Below, one piece after another: positions 12,627-47,992 of a stretch of 64,000 nucleotides of DNA (within the stretch, counting starts at the first letter, position 1; each line of letters opens with the position of its first letter). A model generated the notes under the pieces. That model made no database searches. It saw nothing but the letters and a program-made list of their open reading frames with translations, and was not told the DNA's origin. A program made the translations under genes and the position numbers. Origin of the DNA: Podarcis vaucheri (Eukaryota); NCBI GenBank assembly GCA_965113315.1, contig OZ220365.1; one strand, given 5' to 3'.

Positions 12627-12966
12627 GGTACAGATAAAGGTACCCCTGACCGTTAGGTCCAGTCGCAGACGACTCTGGGGTTGTGGCGCTCATCTCGCTC
12701 TATAGGCCAAGGAGCCGGCATTTGTCCGCAGGCAGCTTCCGGGTCATGTGGCGAACCAGAGCAGCGCACAGAAATACCGTTTACCTTCCTGCTGGAGCAG
12801 TACCTATTTATCTACTTGCACTTTTGACATGCTTTAGAACTGCTAGGTTGGCAGGAGCTGGGACCAAGCAACGGGAACTCACCCTGCCAAGGAGATTCGA
12901 ACCACCGACCTTCTGATCGGCAAGCACTAGGCTCAACCGTTTAGACCACAGCGCTACCCGCGTCCC
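12627..12966 (-). mobile_element. Sauria SINE
   Basis: Reverse complement of the 281-634 family with a small internal deletion. TSD cacataa. Confidence 0.9.
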
Positions 12967-22900: not shown

Positions 22901-23117
22901 CATGGAGGGCAGCAGAGGAAATCCTTGAAAATTGCCTCCTGCTCTCATTAGTGGAGACCGCAGCTCAGTCAAAGAAAAGCAAAACTGGATGCCACCCTAT
23001 CTTTACATTTTAAGCCCTTTGAGGTAGGGACCTGCTATTAGTAAAATGCCATTTATATATTTAATTTATATACTGCCCTTCATCAGAGTATCACGTGTAT
23101 ACAGTACTATGTATATA

Positions 23118-23476
23118 AAGGTAAAGGTACCCCTGCCCGAACGGGCCAGTCTTGACAGACTCTGGGGTTTGTGCGCCCATCTCACATCTATTGGCCGGGG
23201 GCCAGCGCTGTCCGGAGACACTTCCGGGTCACGTGGCCAGCGTGACAAAGCTGCATCTGGCGAGCCAGTGCAGCACACGGAACGCCGTTTACCTTCCCGC
23301 TGGTAAGCGGTACCTATTTATCTACTTGCACCCGGGGGTGCTTTCGAACTGCTAGGTTGGCAGGCGCTGGGACCGAACGACAGGAGCGCACCCCGCCGCG
23401 GGGATTCGAACTGCCGACCTTTCGATCGGCAAGCCCTAGGCGCTGAGGCTTTAACCCACAGCGCCACCCGCGTCCC
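23118..23476 (-). mobile_element. Sauria SINE (CpG-rich, young subfamily)
   Basis: Full length, with a perfect 12-bp TSD actatgtatata. Confidence 0.93.
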
Positions 23477-28758: not shown

Positions 28759-29109
28759 AAAGGTAAAGGGAACCCTGACCATTAGGTCCAGTCGTGACCG
28801 ACTCTGGGGTTGCGGCGCTCATCTCGCTTTATTGGCCAAGGGAGCCGGAGTACAGCTTCCGGGTCATATGGCCAGCATGACTAAGCCGCTTCTGGCGAAC
28901 CAGAGCAGTGCACGGAAACGCCATTTACCTTCCCGCCAGAGCTGTACCTATTTATCTACTTGCACTTTGACGTGCTTTCAAACTGCTAGGTTGGCAGGAG
29001 CAGGGACCGAGCAACGGGAGCTCACCCCGCTGCGGGGATTCGAACTGCCGACCTTCTGATTGGCAAGTCCTAGGCTCTGTGGTTTAACCCACAGCGCCAC
29101 CCGCGTCCC
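28759..29109 (-). mobile_element. Sauria SINE
   Basis: Full length. TSD core tagagtggggcagtta (16 bp; about 23 bp with 2 mismatches). Confidence 0.93.
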
Positions 29110-30662: not shown

Positions 30663-30726
30663 ATGATAAATCAGATCATTAACATTACTCAGTAAAATAA
30701 AAATCTCATTTTTTTCAGAATGCCGC

Positions 30727-31179
30727 TGTCAGGGGATGATTAGCTGCTTGTGCTTAAAATTGTGCCCCCTCAGAGTTTGTGCGGCTCCACAAACCTCTGT
30801 GTGTGACAGAGCTCCTCAGACATGTCTGCTCTAGTCACTAGTAGAGTCTGACAGTGGCTGCCTGCGGAAGCGCTTCCAGCAAAGAAGTTCCTTAACGGAA
30901 ACGCGTCTCCTGGACTCACGACGTGGCAGCTTCCGGCGAAGCATGGGTCTCCCTGCAGTTGCTTCTGACACCTCCCCGCTATTTTCGCTGGAAGTGTCTC
31001 TCACCCCTTTCTCTCCCCTGCTGTTTCCTGCCTGGGCTGCTGCGTCTCTCTCAGCATTACTGAGATCCTCCTCCAGAGACCCCTCGCTCCCCCTCCTTGT
31101 CCCTGCTTTAGCTGCTGACTCTCTCCCAGTCTCTGGGAGCCCTACCACCTCCCTTTCCTCTGATGTCAGTTCCCTGACA
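30727..31179 (-). repeat. 3' LTR
   Basis: Matches 35834-36286 except G30872 vs A35979. Preceded on the minus strand by the PPT. Confidence 0.97.
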
Positions 31180-34100
31180 TCCACCTCCCCTCCAGGGCCC
31201 CCTTCTCCCCCGCCCCTACTCTCTCCTCTGGGCGGTGAGGAGCTGAAACCCCGAAAAGAATCCTCTTCATCTTCAGACGTCTCGAACATTTCCCTCCATC
31301 GGTCTTCGTTCCGACTCGCTGAATCCTCCTCCACCTCGGAATCAGAGAACCCCTCCAACTCTTCTTCTTCGTCGGTGGTGGCGAAGTATTCCCTCCGGAA
31401 CCTCGCCACTGGCTGGGGTTTTCGAGGGAATCTCTGATGAAAAGTTTCAATCAAAACCTCGTCATCTACATCCTCTGCCCTGACCCAGGTGTTTTCCGAC
31501 TCCGGCTCCCCTTCCCACATTACCAAATACTCTACTTGCTCTCCCTTCCACCTGGAATCGAGAATCTCCGCTACATGGTAGCTGTGTTCTTTTTCCTCCA
31601 TAGCTGGTCCCCTATTGACCCTCCCCTCTCTGTCCCCTATATACGGTGACAGCAACGACCTGTGGAACACTGGGTGCAACTTCATGTGGTTCGGTAACCG
31701 GAGTCTGAAAGCCACTGGGTTGACCTGTTGCGTGACTTCAAATGGGCCCAGTCTTTTGGGTCTTAACTTCTTACAACCTCCTTTAAATGGTAACCCTTGG
31801 GTGGACAGCCACACCTGGTCCCCCACCCTAATGCTTTCCCCTTCCCTTCTGGTTTTGTCTGCCTGCCTCTTATATTCCTCCTTCGCCCTGTTTAAATTAA
31901 GTTGGAGCTGGCGATGGATCGCTTCCATTTCTTCAACGAACTGTTCTGCGGCTGGAACGCTCCAGTTCTCCCCTTCCCCCCCTGGGAAGGCTCGGGGATG
32001 ACACCCGTGATTAGCCAAAAAAGGGCTCATCCCCGTGGACACGTTCTCTGCATTGTTGTAGGCAAATTCTGCCAACGCCAGCTTCTCCACCCAATCATTC
32101 TCTCTGTCATTCACATAACACCTCAAATATTGCTGGAGGACACCATTAGCTCTTTCCGCCTGCCCGTTGGTTTCTGGATGACGGGCAGTAGAGAAATTCA
32201 CCTCTACATGCAATAAGCTCATGAGCTTCCTCCAGAACCTGGAAGTAAATTGTTTCCCTCGGTCAGAAACCACCCTCAAGGGGGCGCCATGCAGCCTAAA
32301 CACATTTTCCACAAACAATTTAGCGGTTTCTTCCGCTGTGACCGCATGTGAGCAGGCTATAAAGTGGGCCATCTTGGTTAACAGGTCTACCACAACCATG
32401 ATGGCTGTTTTCCCTTTGGACCTGGGCAGATCAGTCATGAAATCTATTGCCACTGCCTCCCATGGCCTTTCCGGCGTGGGTAGTGGTTCTAATAAACCTG
32501 CCGGTGCCCGCCTCTCCCCCTTGGCTCGTTGGCATCGGTCACACCCTCTCACATATTCCCGCACATCTTCCCTGACCTTGGGCCACCAGAATTCCCTGGT
32601 AACCAGCCACATGGTTTTGTGTTGCCCAAAATGCCCTGCTGTGGGGCTATCGTGCAGTTGCTTGAGTACCTTTTCCCTCAATTCCCCTTCAGGTATGTAT
32701 AACGCTCCCTTGTAGTACAACGCCCCATCTCTCTCCTCAAAACCCCCGGGTTTGTCTCCCTCCCTCCTGAGACCCCTGAGTTTGTCCTGGGCGTATTCAT
32801 CCTGCACCGTTCCCTCTACCAGTTCCCTTTGCCCCACCAATGCCGCCCCACACACCCAGCGGTCCTCGGGAATGACATGGGTCTCTTCGGGTGCACCCTC
32901 TCCCTCCAAATATTCAGGTTTGCGTGAGAGAGCGTCCGCCCTAACGTTCTCCGGGCCTGGTACGTAACAAATCTCAAAGTTAAATTTGGAGAACTCCTGG
33001 GCCCATCTCAACTGCCGTTGGTTGAGCACTCGCGCAGTTCTCCAATACTCTAGATTCTTATGGTCCGTGCACACTTGCACCTTCTGTTGTGCACCAATTA
33101 GCAGGTGCCTCCATCTCCGGAAGGCCTCATGAATCGCAAGAAGTTCCCGGTCGTACACCGTGTAGTTCCTCTCAGATTTGTTCAGCTTTCGCGAAAAGAA
33201 GGCACACGGTCGCCACTCTGACCCCTCCTTCCCCGGCTGCAGAAGAAGCACCGCCCCTATGGCTCTGTCAGAAGCGTCTGTTTCGACCCTCAGCTTTTTT
33301 TGTAAATCCACATGTAGAAGTTGTTCATCAGAGGCGAAGGCCCTTTTCAGTTCCTCAAACACTCGCTCCGCCTCCCCCGTCCAAACAAACTTCTTTTTAC
33401 TGCTGAGACAGTCCGTGATGGGCGCCGTCAGGTGGGTGAAGTTTCGGATAAACTTACGATAAAAGTTTCCAAACCCTAGGAACCTCTGCACATCCTTCTT
33501 GGTCTTGGGTGTTTTCCATTCCAGCACCGCTTGAACTTTGCCGGGGTCCATGGCCAACCCCTTGTCTGACAAGCGGTACCCCAGGAATTCCACCTCCTTG
33601 GTATGAAACTGACACTTCTCCAGTTTCACCCACAGTCTGTTGGCTTGCAGCCTGCTCAACACTTCTCTGACGTCTCTCACATGTTGCTCCTCATTCTCCG
33701 AATACACCAACACGTCATCTAAGAAGGCCACGCAATTCTTGTAGAGCAAAGGCCCCAGTACGTGGTTCATGAAGGCTTGAAAACACGCGGAGCCTGTTTG
33801 TAATCCAAAAGGCATAACGAGGTATTCAAATGCCCCCAAAGGGGTGAACATGGTGGTCTTCCATTCATCCCCTTTCCTTATACGTATCAGGTTGTACGCC
33901 CCCCTTAGGTCCAGCTTTGTAAAAATCTTTCCTTTTCGCACCCTGGTCAAAATATCATCAATCCTGGGCATAGGAAAAGCCGCCGGCTCTGTCACTGCAT
34001 TTAGGCGCCGAAAGTCACATACCAGCCTCGGCTTGTCCGTGTTTTTTTTATCCACAAAAAACACTGGGCTACCCCCCGCTGCCTTGGACTCTCTGATGAA

Positions 34101-34835
34101 GCCTCTCTTCAGGTTCTTGTCAATGAACGCTCGCAACTCCTGCATTTCCCTGTCTGACATGGCATACAACTTGCCTACAGGAAGCTGTGCTCCAGGGAGT
34201 AAATTGATCTGGCAATCAAAGGGCCTATGCGGGGGTAGTTGGTCAGCTTCCTTCTCGCTGAACACGTCGCTGAGATCAGCATACTGTGGTGGCACCTTCC
34301 CCTTCCCCATTACTTCAGTCCCTGCTAGGGTGGCTTGGGCCCCTGCTGACCCCTTTTCCCCCCTGCAGTGTTCTAAGCAATGTGCTGAACCGAAGGAAAC
34401 CACTCTTTGATGCCAGCCCACCAGCGGATCATGTAAGGCTAGCCAGCTCATTCCCAAAATAATGGGAGCGCCTCCCAAGGTGGCCACATTAAACGCTATC
34501 AGTTCTGTGTGCCTTGCCACCCTCATTATCATTGGGACGGTCTGCAAGCTAACTCCTCCTCCCAACAGTTCCCTGCCATCGATCGTGGTCACCTGCAGGG
34601 GGTTGCTTAAAGGGATAGTCTGTATCTGATGTTCAGCAGCAAACTCCTTGCTCATAAAATTGCAGGAGCTGCCTGAGTCCAACAGCGCCTTTATTTTTAG
34701 GGGGTGTCCATTTTGCAGCTCTAGCGACACTTCAATCACTAGAGCAGGTCGAGGAGCTTCTGGCACGGGCACTTTCACTGCTCTTTGGCCTGGCTGCAGT
34801 GCCCTGACGTTGGCAACCAGGCGTTGGCTTTTACC
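30831..34835 (-). CDS. pol: Pol (protease, RT, RNase H, integrase, chromodomain, acidic/basic tail), expressed as Gag-Pol by -1 frameshift
   Basis: Motifs: LLDSGS (PR); KLDLRGAY, MPFGL and FLDD (RT); TDAS, RELLAI and TDHKNL (RH); HDSPTAGH..CDRC, AIDF, SDRG, QAER and LGPF (IN); YHVAEILD..YLVMWEG..NTW (chromo). The frame is open from about 34862 and the start given is the inferred slip site. Confidence 0.96.
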   Translation of the reverse strand, partial: GKSQRLVANVRALQPGQRAVKVPVPEAPRPALVIEVSLELQNGHPLKIKALLDSGSSCNFMSKEFAAEHQIQTIPLSNPLQVTTIDGRELLGGGVSLQTVPMIMRVARHTELIAFNVATLGGAPIILGMSWLALHDPLVGWHQRVVSFGSAHCLEHCRGEKGSAGAQATLAGTEVMGKGKVPPQYADLSDVFSEKEADQLPPHRPFDCQINLLPGAQLPVGKLYAMSDREMQELRAFIDKNLKRGFIRESKAAGGSPVFFVDKKNTDKPRLVCDFRRLNAVTEPAAFPMPRIDDILTRVRKGKIFTKLDLRGAYNLIRIRKGDEWKTTMFTPLGAFEYLVMPFGLQTGSACFQAFMNHVLGPLLYKNCVAFLDDVLVYSENEEQHVRDVREVLSRLQANRLWVKLEKCQFHTKEVEFLGYRLSDKGLAMDPGKVQAVLEWKTPKTKKDVQRFLGFGNFYRKFIRNFTHLTAPITDCLSSKKKFVWTGEAERVFEELKRAFASDEQLLHVDLQKKLRVETDASDRAIGAVLLLQPGKEGSEWRPCAFFSRKLNKSERNYTVYDRELLAIHEAFRRWRHLLIGAQQKVQVCTDHKNLEYWRTARVLNQRQLRWAQEFSKFNFEICYVPGPENVRADALSRKPEYLEGEGAPEETHVIPEDRWVCGAALVGQRELVEGTVQDEYAQDKLRGLRREGDKPGGFEERDGALYYKGALYIPEGELREKVLKQLHDSPTAGHFGQHKTMWLVTREFWWPKVREDVREYVRGCDRCQRAKGERRAPAGLLEPLPTPERPWEAVAIDFMTDLPRSKGKTAIMVVVDLLTKMAHFIACSHAVTAEETAKLFVENVFRLHGAPLRVVSDRGKQFTSRFWRKLMSLLHVEVNFSTARHPETNGQAERANGVLQQYLRCYVNDRENDWVEKLALAEFAYNNAENVSTGMSPFLANHGCHPRAFPGGEGENWSVPAAEQFVEEMEAIHRQLQLNLNRAKEEYKRQADKTRREGESIRVGDQVWLSTQGLPFKGGCKKLRPKRLGPFEVTQQVNPVAFRLRLPNHMKLHPVFHRSLLSPYIGDREGRVNRGPAMEEKEHSYHVAEILDSRWKGEQVEYLVMWEGEPESENTWVRAEDVDDEVLIETFHQRFPRKPQPVARFRREYFATTDEEEELEGFSDSEVEEDSASRNEDRWREMFETSEDEEDSFRGFSSSPPRGESRGGGEGGPGGEVDVRELTSEEREVVGLPETGRESAAKAGTRRGSEGSLEEDLSNAERDAAAQAGNSRGEKGVRDTSSENSGEVSEATAGRPMLRRKLPRRESRRRVSVKELLCWKRFRRQPLSDSTSD
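31180..31216 (-). other. Polypurine tract
   Basis: Minus strand GGGGCGGGGGAGAAGGGGGCCCTGGAGGGGAGGTGGA lies immediately before the 3' LTR TG. Confidence 0.85.
34767..34835 (-). promoter_or_regulatory. -1 ribosomal frameshift signal (slippery heptamer plus H-type pseudoknot)
   Basis: G_GUA_AAA in the gag frame, 6-nt spacer, stem 1 GCCUGGUUGC/GCAGCCAGGC, stem 2 GGGCACU/AGUGCCC. pol is in the -1 frame. Confidence 0.82.
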
Positions 34836-35788
34836 TGCTCCGTTTCTCCCTGCTCTCCCCCCTCAACTGCTCCCACCATCCCTTGCCATTCCTTCCTCTG
34901 GGGGCAGACTCTGGCAAAGTGGCCTGGCTGTTGGCAGAGATAGCATTTCCGGGCTCCCTTTCCCTCCTTCTTCGCCCCCTCACTGGGCTTTGAAACTGCG
35001 CGCGCGCGGGCTGTTCCGATTTCCATCGGCTCTGCCGGCGGGAAAGCTGGCTCAGGAATGTCTGGAATGCGTAACTCCTTCCAACGTTCCCCTCTCCCTT
35101 CCCGCCTCTCCAAGGCTCTTGCCTCCTGGCGCGCTCCAATGGTCAGCGCAGATTTGGTCAGCTGATCCATAGACACCGCCCTGGGGCTCCTGGCCAGCTC
35201 GTCTTTCACAGCTGAAGAAAGACCTTCTTCAAATAGCATCTGAATGGGTGCTGCCGATAAATCCCACCCCAATCTGTGAATCAGCATCGTAAATTCAGTC
35301 CAGTACTCACGGACAGATCTGCTTCCCTGCTTGCAAGCCATTAGCTGTCTGCGCACCACCCCTTCCTCAATATCACTGGAAAACATGATATCCATTGCAC
35401 GAAAGAATTTCATAGTGTCCTTTAGGATATCGTTGTGCGTTGCCATCAGGGGTCGAACCCAGTCCCGCGCCCCCTTCTCAAGATGCCCAATTACGAAAGC
35501 AACTCGCGATTCCTCATCAGGGAACTCATCAAACTGCACATTCAGGGCATATTGCATCTCAGTCCTAAAGGCATGGTAATCCTTGGGGTCCCCCCCAAAC
35601 TTCTGCACCAATCCTGGTACCTTTCTGGGGAACTGAGTGGTTCTCCCCTTTTTGTCAGCATCCTGAGCCCTTCTCTCCTCGAGCCTCGCCGTCTGCAGCG
35701 CAAGTTGGACCTCCAGAGCTTGATACCTTTCTTCCAAGCTTGGACCAGCTCCAACCCCTGCCTCTCCGGTTCCGGCTGGGTTGCTCAT
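34775..35788 (-). CDS. gag: Gag (capsid plus CCHC zinc knuckle), 337 aa from the first ATG
   Basis: KFGGDP..F, VAFVIGHL..GARDW and KQGSRSVREY (retrotransposon CA), EPMEIG, and CYLCQQPGHFARVC. Layout is PEG10/sushi-like. Confidence 0.95.
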   Translation of the reverse strand: MSNPAGTGEAGVGAGPSLEERYQALEVQLALQTARLEERRAQDADKKGRTTQFPRKVPGLVQKFGGDPKDYHAFRTEMQYALNVQFDEFPDEESRVAFVIGHLEKGARDWVRPLMATHNDILKDTMKFFRAMDIMFSSDIEEGVVRRQLMACKQGSRSVREYWTEFTMLIHRLGWDLSAAPIQMLFEEGLSSAVKDELARSPRAVSMDQLTKSALTIGARQEARALERREGRGERWKELRIPDIPEPAFPPAEPMEIGTARARAVSKPSEGAKKEGKGARKCYLCQQPGHFARVCPQRKEWQGMVGAVEGGEQGETEQVKANAWLPTSGHCSQAKEQ

Positions 35789-35820
35789 GATGCTTTCTCC
35801 TGCACAGGCAGCGTACAAAG

Positions 35821-35831
35821 ACTGTCAGACT
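35821..35831 (-). promoter_or_regulatory. Primer-binding site, self-priming type
   Basis: AGTCTGACAGT starts 2 nt after the 5' LTR, has no TGG, and is perfectly complementary to ACTGTCAGACT within the LTR (35952-35962). Confidence 0.8.
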
Positions 35832-35833
35832 GC

Positions 35834-36286
35834 TGTCAGGGGATGATTAGCTGCTTGTGCTTAAAATTGTGCCCCCTCAGAGTTTGTGCGGCTCCACAAA
35901 CCTCTGTGTGTGACAGAGCTCCTCAGACATGTCTGCTCTAGTCACTAGTAGAGTCTGACAGTGGCTGCCTGCGGAAGCACTTCCAGCAAAGAAGTTCCTT
36001 AACGGAAACGCGTCTCCTGGACTCACGACGTGGCAGCTTCCGGCGAAGCATGGGTCTCCCTGCAGTTGCTTCTGACACCTCCCCGCTATTTTCGCTGGAA
36101 GTGTCTCTCACCCCTTTCTCTCCCCTGCTGTTTCCTGCCTGGGCTGCTGCGTCTCTCTCAGCATTACTGAGATCCTCCTCCAGAGACCCCTCGCTCCCCC
36201 TCCTTGTCCCTGCTTTAGCTGCTGACTCTCTCCCAGTCTCTGGGAGCCCTACCACCTCCCTTTCCTCTGATGTCAGTTCCCTGACA
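35834..36286 (-). repeat. 5' LTR
   Basis: 453 bp, TG...CA, upstream of gag. Confidence 0.97.
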
Positions 36287-36581
36287 GCCTCTGTTGAGCA
36301 GGATGAGCACACAGAAACCTTCCCCAGACCTCTCACTTGCACTGTGTTTTGGAAAAAGTAATAAAAAGAAAATATCAGGCTGCTTGGAAGATACTCCCAC
36401 TGTTTCTTACATTCTCCAAACTACAGAACAAATGGTAAGAGATCCCTGTTTCCAAAGCTCTCCCATGCAAAGCGATTCATAGGAGAGGGCAGCATTTGCA
36501 GAATCCTGCCTACTGTATAGTATACCTAACATAATAGTTTATCCAGCCCTGTAGGGAAAAATACGATTACCATATATCATG

Positions 36582-46172: not shown

Positions 46173-46725
46173 CTGGATTGTTTTATTAACACGCACTTAC
46201 AAGAATCAGCCAGTTCAGTCACCATGCCTGTCCAAATTGATATCACTTTCTCTTGTCTTGATCACAGTTGTGAGCTCATCTTGAAGCAGAGAATAAGAAC
46301 TGAAATGTATTGTTATGAGTTTGGGGTGTTAAAAGGGGTGCCAGACTCCTCTAAGCCCTGAATCCAGCAAGTGTTGAAAACTGATCAAAGCTTCTAATTT
46401 TTTGAATAGCCAGGCTAGCCTCCTTGTGAGGTGTAAGAAGAACAAAGGAAGCAGCACTGTGGGAGACGGTAAATGAGGGAGGCCCCTCCTTCAACTCACA
46501 GATATTGAGAAGGACAAAAGCCAGAGTTGGGAGTTCAGAGGAGTGATGTGGCCTGGGAAGGAAGGCAGCAAGCTGGAGGGAAAACAGCAAGGTTAGAGAA
46601 CAATTTTTTAAATCAAGGATGCTGCTATAGGAGAAACATGACCCTTTGAAGTTGTTAATGTTGTGATCCCCTCCATCACAGGCTCAGGTTGTGTATATAT
46701 ACATATATACATATACATATACATA

Positions 46726-47074
46726 GGGTAAAGAGACCCCTGACCATTAGGTCCAGTCATGGCCGACTCTGGGGTTGCGGTGCTCATCTCGCTTTATTGG
46801 CCAAGGGAGCCGGCATACAGCTTCCGGGTCATGTGGCCAGCATGACTAAGCCGCTTCTGGTGAACCAGAGCAGCGCATGGAAACGCCGTTTACCTTCCCG
46901 CCAGAGTGGTACCTATTTATCTACTTGCACTTTGACGTGCTTTTGAACTGCTAGGTTGGCAGGAGCAGGGACCGAGCAACGGGAGCTCACCCCGTCGCGG
47001 GGATTCGAACCGCCGACCTTCTGATCGGCAAGCCCTAGGCTCTGTGGTTTAACCCACAGTGCCACCCGCGTCCC
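46726..47074 (-). mobile_element. Sauria SINE
   Basis: Full length, inserted in a TA/CA-rich tract. TSD tacata. Confidence 0.93.
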
Positions 47075-47619: not shown

Positions 47620-47992
47620 AAAGGTAAAGATAAATGGTAAAGGACCCCGGACGGTTAGGTCTAGTCAAAGGTGACCATGGGGTTGTGTCGCTCATCTCAC
47701 TTACAGGCCAAGAGAGCCGGCATTTGTCCACAGACAGCTTTCCGGGTCATGTGGCCAGCATGACTATACCGCTTCTGGTGCAACGGAACACCGTGATGGA
47801 GACCAGGGAGCACAGAAACGCTGTTTACCTTCCCACCAAAGTGGTGCCTATTTATCTACTTGCACTGGTGTGCTTTTGAACTGCTAGGTTGGCAGAAGCT
47901 AGGACAGAGCAACGGGAGCTCACCCTGTTGCACAGATTTGAACCACCAACCAAGAGGCTCAGTGGTTTAGACCACAGTGCCACCCTCGTCCC
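47620..47992 (-). mobile_element. Sauria SINE (older, divergent subfamily) inserted in an L2 tail
   Basis: Same architecture with an extra GGAACACCGTGATGGA segment. It sits in the (TAT/TAC)n tail of the preceding L2. Confidence 0.85.

Follow-up and report, generated by a model that had tools for sequence, protein, structure and literature searches.

Likely self-priming of reverse transcription in a young Tf1/sushi-group LTR retrotransposon of the lizard Podarcis vaucheri

The window, meaning the whole 64,000-nt stretch of Podarcis vaucheri DNA analyzed here (contig OZ220365.1 of assembly GCA_965113315.1), carries an LTR retrotransposon on its minus strand (Table 1). The Ty3/gypsy order of protease, reverse transcriptase (RT), RNase H and integrase, a C-terminal chromodomain, two LTRs and a target-site duplication (TSD) are all present. 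A perfect 5-bp TSD was found in 17 of the 22 elements with both LTRs that were compared, and a 99% identical copy elsewhere in the genome shows a perfect 5-bp duplication at the same LTR edges. The pol frame lies at -1 relative to gag. At the position of the window's GGTAAAA heptamer, 16 of 20 elements from other subfamilies carry GGGAAAC, the form in most relatives, or GGGAAAT, the other four giving no match. A -1 frameshift between gag and pol is described in the literature as usual for Tf1/sushi chromoviruses outside the fission yeasts. With regard to host genes, a Pfam scan of 30 of the window's 82 ORFs of at least 85 aa returned nothing over the cut-off. A repeat of 300-350 nt, which we take to be Sauria SINE-like, occurs in five dispersed copies (12630-12966, 23117-23476, 28759-29109, 46724-47074 and 47632-47992). 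In addition, an NCBI gene model of Podarcis lilfordi named 'C2 calcium-dependent domain 4C-like' (P0005) contains a piece 80% identical to the window gag and is probably an annotation chimera.

Table 1. Features of the window element and its predicted priming region (positions in the window).
Feature	Position	Strand	Remarks
LTR retrotransposon	36286-30727	minus	5,560 nt; the priming region lies at its 5' end
5' LTR	35834..36286	-	453 nt, TG...CA, ends CTGACA; other copies align from the same edge
3' LTR	30727..31179	-	453 nt; one mismatch between 5' and 3' LTRs
Target-site duplication	5' side 36287..36291, 3' side 30722..30726	-	4/5 bases match
gag ORF	34775..35788	-	capsid and CCHC knuckle matches
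pol ORF	30831..34862	-	protease, RT, RNase H, integrase, SH3, chromodomain (Pfam domains), then tail into 3' LTR
Polypurine tract	31180..31193	-	
Predicted -1 frameshift heptamer	34829..34835	-	GGTAAAA; stem-loop next
Spacer, LTR end to PBS	35832..35833	-	GC, 2 nt
PBS, not tRNA-type	35821..35831	-	11 nt; exact Watson-Crick complement of LTR 35962-35952
Predicted 11-nt self-primer	35952..35962	-	predicted RNA 5' end at 35962; covaries with PBS
Primer sequence copy in 3' LTR	30845..30855	-	within pol reading frame
Initiator-like BBCA+1BW context	35960..35965	-	+1 is the primer's first base; one of 8 such sites in the window LTR
Upstream 8-mer of the initial annotation	35964..35971	-	pairs with 35812-35805; not a conserved helix arm
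U5 arm of predicted U5-leader duplex	35850..35860	-	
Leader arm of predicted U5-leader duplex	35802..35812	-	includes GCTGCCTG of the initial annotation
Integrase-tail motif 1, helix-acidic linker-LxGF	31347..31400	-	resembles LEDGF-binding motif
Integrase-tail motif 2, helix-acidic linker-FxGF	31245..31298	-	resembles LEDGF-binding motif

The position of the element among chromoviruses was assessed with an RT tree of 41 rows rooted at the midpoint, from which the named sushi, Amn and Tf1 sequences were absent. The element falls in a clade of 34 of the 41 rows (support 100/99), which holds fungal, fish, amphibian and reptile chromoviruses and leaves the plant ones outside. This clade corresponds to the Tf1/sushi (Fungi/Vertebrates) cluster as described in published accounts of these elements (10.1101/2022.12.06.519325; PMC2774666), and the placement agrees with the initial annotation, made from the letters alone, of a Tf1/sushi-type element. 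The nearest named proteins come from Podarcis muralis and are 96% identical in the RT. A genome search returned 2694 candidates, of which 40 were scored, a figure that is not a copy number; all of the scored copies are at least 99% identical, which indicates that the window family is young. A large share of all Tf1/sushi hits falls on one 41-Mb contig (C41), many of them in near-identical duplicated blocks at about 20-25 Mb, and this contig may be a repeat-rich sex chromosome.

In LTR retrotransposons, the primer-binding site (PBS) just after the 5' LTR is normally bound by a tRNA. The 5' LTR of the window element is not followed by TGG, and after a two-base spacer come 11 nt that are the exact complement of a segment inside the LTR; the initial annotation had reported both features, and both were confirmed in the sequence. 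The pairing is exactly 11 nt long, being bounded by a C.C mismatch at each neighbouring position. When the LTR was shuffled with dinucleotide composition preserved, 12 of 5000 shuffles contained a complement of at least 11 nt to a segment whose start lay 0-4 nt beyond the LTR.

Relatives of the element were collected by searching the same genome at both the family and the protein level. Forty stretches were fetched and 21 of them used, giving 22 elements with the window copy; the 19 dropped comprised 11 without an LTR pair or a pol match, five whose repeat pair belonged to a nested or unrelated element, one with an interrupted LTR, one pairing two different elements and one that was partly unreadable. 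The RT identity of the 22 elements to that of the window ranges from 54 to 100%, and the PBS starts after a 2-nt spacer in every one of them. Pairing with the element's own 5' LTR is complete over 11 nt in 14 elements and over 10 nt in the two of family B (RT 54-55% identical), and the remaining six carry one lesion each (five pair at 10 of 11 positions, with one mismatch or G.U, and one has a PBS deletion). Eleven distinct PBS sequences were found, each matching its own LTR, one of these from a locus known from its 5' end alone (L041). In a cross matrix, non-cognate LTRs reached 11 paired bases only where the same primer was present, the best other value being 10. The distance from the PBS to its LTR match is 126-135 nt in families A, A2, C and E and 146-150 nt in D, F and G.

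Covariation of the PBS with the LTR across the family had been named in the initial annotation as a check on self-priming, and the complementarity was indeed found to be kept with different letters in relatives. For 24 alignable sequences from four subfamilies, 98.1% of primer/PBS cells pair and four of the 11 pairs change on both sides. The covariation score was 0.324 against 0.101 in shuffles, and none of 500 shuffles, a procedure that ignores relatedness, scored as high; the number of pairs changing on both sides did not by itself exceed shuffled values (359 of 500). Among the four covarying pairs is one with a CpG on each side, where either side could decay without the other. In slid-partner controls, pairing fell to 19-35%. 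Stronger evidence than this alignment comes from families D, F, G and B, which cannot be aligned and in which wholly different letters are found in the same geometry. Within subfamilies, pairing is perfect in 24 of 30 copies of A2, the six imperfect ones having one substitution each, and in 28 of 30 of B; the corresponding count for the window family, 27 of 28 readable copies, is uninformative because these copies are nearly identical. Furthermore, two loci show a change that is not shared by both LTRs and the PBS. In L190, both LTRs share a primer change while the PBS keeps the older form, although the change lies at a CpG site and two independent decays are possible. In L176, the 5' LTR and the PBS share a variant, the 3' LTR keeps the family form and the TSD is intact. 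Both loci would be consistent with an inherited change from one primer/PBS form to the next.

Transcription is predicted to start at or next to 35962, and the sequence around the first primer base bears on this indirectly. This base is the A of CA+1BW in 20 of the 22 elements, and the full BBCA+1BW, the human initiator consensus in a published account (PMC5287114), is present in 17. The motif is short, occurs 2-11 times per LTR as BBCA+1BW-type sites, and overlaps a proline codon in the window lineage. The two exceptions belong to family B, of which 26 of 30 loci have ATAAA at -30 and three have it at -29. Against such a start, the window LTR lacks both a TATA box near -30 and an AATAAA downstream of the primer; nor does any canonical poly(A) hexamer follow the primer in the window (35951-35834) or in relatives A2, C and E. 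Families D, F and G carry AATAAA 68-75 nt after the primer.

Other accounts of the match between PBS and LTR were considered against these data. The match might be a by-product of a repeated LTR terminal motif with no role in priming, since the heptamer at the LTR end, CTGACAG, comes back in the window PBS and TGTCA is a recurrent word of the window LTR. However, the PBSs of sister families are unlike their own LTR ends and yet match their own LTRs at a fixed distance; the cross matrix, the 22-element comparison and the covariation alignment refute this reading, and its probability is practically negligible. A host tRNA fragment could alternatively act as the primer, with the LTR match being secondary; one candidate would be tRNA-Lys(UUU) cut within its anticodon loop to leave the 5' half. 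Half-tRNA priming is reported for some copia lineages (PMC6317226). The tRNA set used for comparison, drawn from 83 predicted genes, comprised 57 distinct sequences with 24 anticodons, covering 17 of 20 amino acids and lacking Arg, Trp and Tyr, a gap that leaves some room for such a primer. The best match to the window PBS is indeed with tRNA-Lys(UUU), where the first seven PBS bases are complementary to the contiguous stretch just before the anticodon (8 of 11 overall); but 487 of 5000 random 11-mers reach seven, and the nine other PBS types tested match 4-6 contiguous nt of unrelated tRNAs. Neither tRNA 3' ends nor halves from the 57 sequences, which lack Arg, Trp and Tyr, fitted the PBS above chance, in keeping with the tRNA independence put forward in the initial annotation. 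Moreover, a host primer would keep the PBS constant, whereas the PBS changes between families together with the LTR, which makes any host primer hard to invoke; priming by a tRNA fragment is thus judged extremely unlikely. In the same survey, two loci (L126 and L174) were seen to hold a nested young non-sushi LTR family of about 4.9-5.0 kb, with 99% LTR identity and TGG a few bases after the LTR. Only 5-nt self-complements were found in these two, and a quick 3'-end tRNA test did not detect either as tRNA-primed, so they are not validated negative controls.

A further alternative places the RNA start upstream of 35962, at about 35975, where a longer two-helix fold would leave the primer with the same 3' cut and a longer 5' tail. 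It builds on an 8-nt second complementarity that the initial annotation had offered as an extension of the duplex. This complementarity is present (35971-35964 with 35812-35805, one base beyond the feature start of 35806 given there), is strong in the window's subfamily (z of -3.0 and -3.7), and folds together with the primer helix if the RNA begins at 35971-35975. Outside that subfamily it is not conserved: the other 20 elements lack it (z of -0.7 to +1.5), and on the alignment 54% of cells pair, with 500 of 500 shuffles as good, so the proposed extension did not hold up. The upstream 8-mer lies 5' of the proposed start and would therefore be absent from an RNA beginning at 35962. On these two counts, its place 5' of the start and its loss in relatives, the upstream helix was rejected. 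In addition, the complementarity ends sharply at the first primer base in all families, and the flanking duplexes of Tf1, as described, use LTR sequence downstream of the primer. An upstream start is accordingly regarded as very unlikely.

The downstream arm of that complementarity is instead predicted, with moderate covariation, to pair with U5 (35860-35850), like one flanking duplex of the Tf1 'pretzel'. On the alignment, pairing in this U5-leader duplex reaches 92.5%, both partners change at three of its ten pairs, and none of 500 shuffles matched its covariation. It beats shuffles at the 5% level in 13 of 22 elements, the duplex having been chosen after these sequences had been viewed. The window copy itself (54 of 500 shuffles) and families B, D and G do not reach significance. 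In family F, the corresponding place holds a 13-14 bp helix whose sequence is unrelated (1 and 2 of 500 shuffles). For the second Tf1 flanking duplex, which involves the bases just 5' of the PBS, two of 22 elements passed at 10% against shuffles under a single folding model.

Self-priming therefore stands as the preferred reading: the region is very probably the PBS of a young Tf1/sushi-group LTR retrotransposon that primes reverse transcription with its own RNA, a reading drawn from comparative sequence evidence. Under this model, the RNA would begin at or beside 35962 and its first 11 nt would pair with the PBS, as the covariation suggests. By analogy with Tf1, the RNase H of the element, a domain present in the window pol, would cut after nucleotide 11 and expose a 3' OH at a distance of two bases from the edge of the LTR. 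Extension from this end would cross the 2-nt spacer into U5, with the predicted duplex of U5 35860-35850 and leader 35812-35802 bracketing the PBS. Plus-strand synthesis would then copy the retained primer into a new PBS, and no tRNA would be needed. Such copying would explain why the PBS tracks the LTR in each family with strict Watson-Crick pairing and sharp bounds. In published accounts of Tf1, the RNA's initial 11 bases form a duplex with the PBS and cleavage by RNase H falls between bases 11 and 12 (PMC7175516), and about half of the cDNA is reported to keep a complete copy of the PBS at the 3' end (PMC11042837).

The primer sequence in the 3' LTR has a second reading. Staying open through the polypurine tract, the pol frame continues for 116 codons inside the 3' LTR (31179-30831, minus strand) and stops 12 nt beyond the primer copy. 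In A2, C and E, the pol of intact copies stops at that position too, and in D, F, G and B the frame likewise extends into the LTR. Pol thus reads across the LTR copy of the primer, so that the proposed promoter and primer are also protein-coding. A basic motif with a conserved LLCW (30908-30876, minus strand) stands just before the primer copy in the pol tail. Between the chromodomain and the LTR-encoded codons, the integrase tail carries two tandem motifs, both kept in A, A2, C, E and D and the first also in F, and absent in B and G. Loci with tail motifs besides the window are L123, L186, L121, L133, P0053 and P0055, and an Anolis family has one such helix-acidic-(F/L)xGF motif. In family B and an Anolis family, the LTR-encoded tail ends in RRSARL or RRSARI (C-termini of L134, L137, P0047, P0059 and P0062), an ending presumably similar to the nucleosome-binding motif of HMGN proteins.

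In sequence, the tandem tail motifs closely resemble the LEDGF/HRP2-binding motifs of JPO2, PogZ and MLL1, both as seen in fusion constructs and as set out in a published account (PMC9987994). A complex prediction of tail motif 2 with a lacertid LEDGF domain scored 0.09 against a mark of 0.34, in a run without controls and with a tool unbenchmarked for peptides. A PDB sequence search with the integrase tail gave no match, and no paper on FxGF motifs in retrotransposon integrases appeared in the literature listings searched. A tentative and rather doubtful proposal is that the self-primer evolves as integrase codons, with the PBS being rewritten from it, and that the tail tethers the element to LEDGF/HRP2, or to another protein with a TFIIS-N domain, through a copied host motif. 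If true, the element would reach a factor used by HIV by a different route; should the tail motifs bind LEDGF-type domains, this would be a novel means of insertion-site selection by a retrotransposon.

Among known systems, Tf1 and Tf2 of Schizosaccharomyces pombe are the closest in design. As described, they share with the window element an 11-nt LTR primer whose complement, the PBS, closely follows the 5' LTR, an integrase with a chromodomain, and a flanking duplex between the post-PBS leader and the LTR downstream of the primer. The window element differs from Tf1 in having a CCHC knuckle and two ORFs that a predicted -1 shift would join, where published descriptions give Tf1 one ORF and no CCHC; moreover, one of the two flanking duplexes is supported and pol enters the 3' LTR over the primer. 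Self-priming of Tf1 is experimental, whereas that of the window element is predicted from the DNA, its start site included.

Butler et al. in 2001 are said to have inferred self-priming and the 'pretzel' for the vertebrate Tf1/sushi group. The vertebrate V-clade (sushi-ichi of Takifugu, Amn-san of Xenopus and Amn-ni of Danio) would fall in the same RT clade of fish, amphibian, reptile and fungal chromoviruses, the named members being absent from the tree, and it has been reported in amniotes (PMC2774666). Published accounts describe self-priming for the Tf1/sushi group (10.1101/2022.12.06.519325; PMC7175516), where it is presented as common, vertebrates included; in the sources consulted, it is experimentally shown in fission yeast only and inferred for vertebrate elements. 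For Tj1 of S. japonicus and the plant Tcn1 clade, it is described as predicted from the same PBS/LTR complementarity. The literature searches returned no paper joining self-priming, an LTR retrotransposon and a lizard, and none on a Podarcis PBS.

The kind of element described here was already proposed for vertebrates in 2001, and the lizard case is an added member with good comparative support that leaves the textbook picture unchanged. Because its copies are young, tissue samples could show directly where the RNA starts and which primer natural cDNA carries. Compared with the V-clade as described, the lizard lineage has at least eleven primer sequences in one genome, and the constant geometry, the two-sided changes and the youth of the copies make it a clean comparative case.
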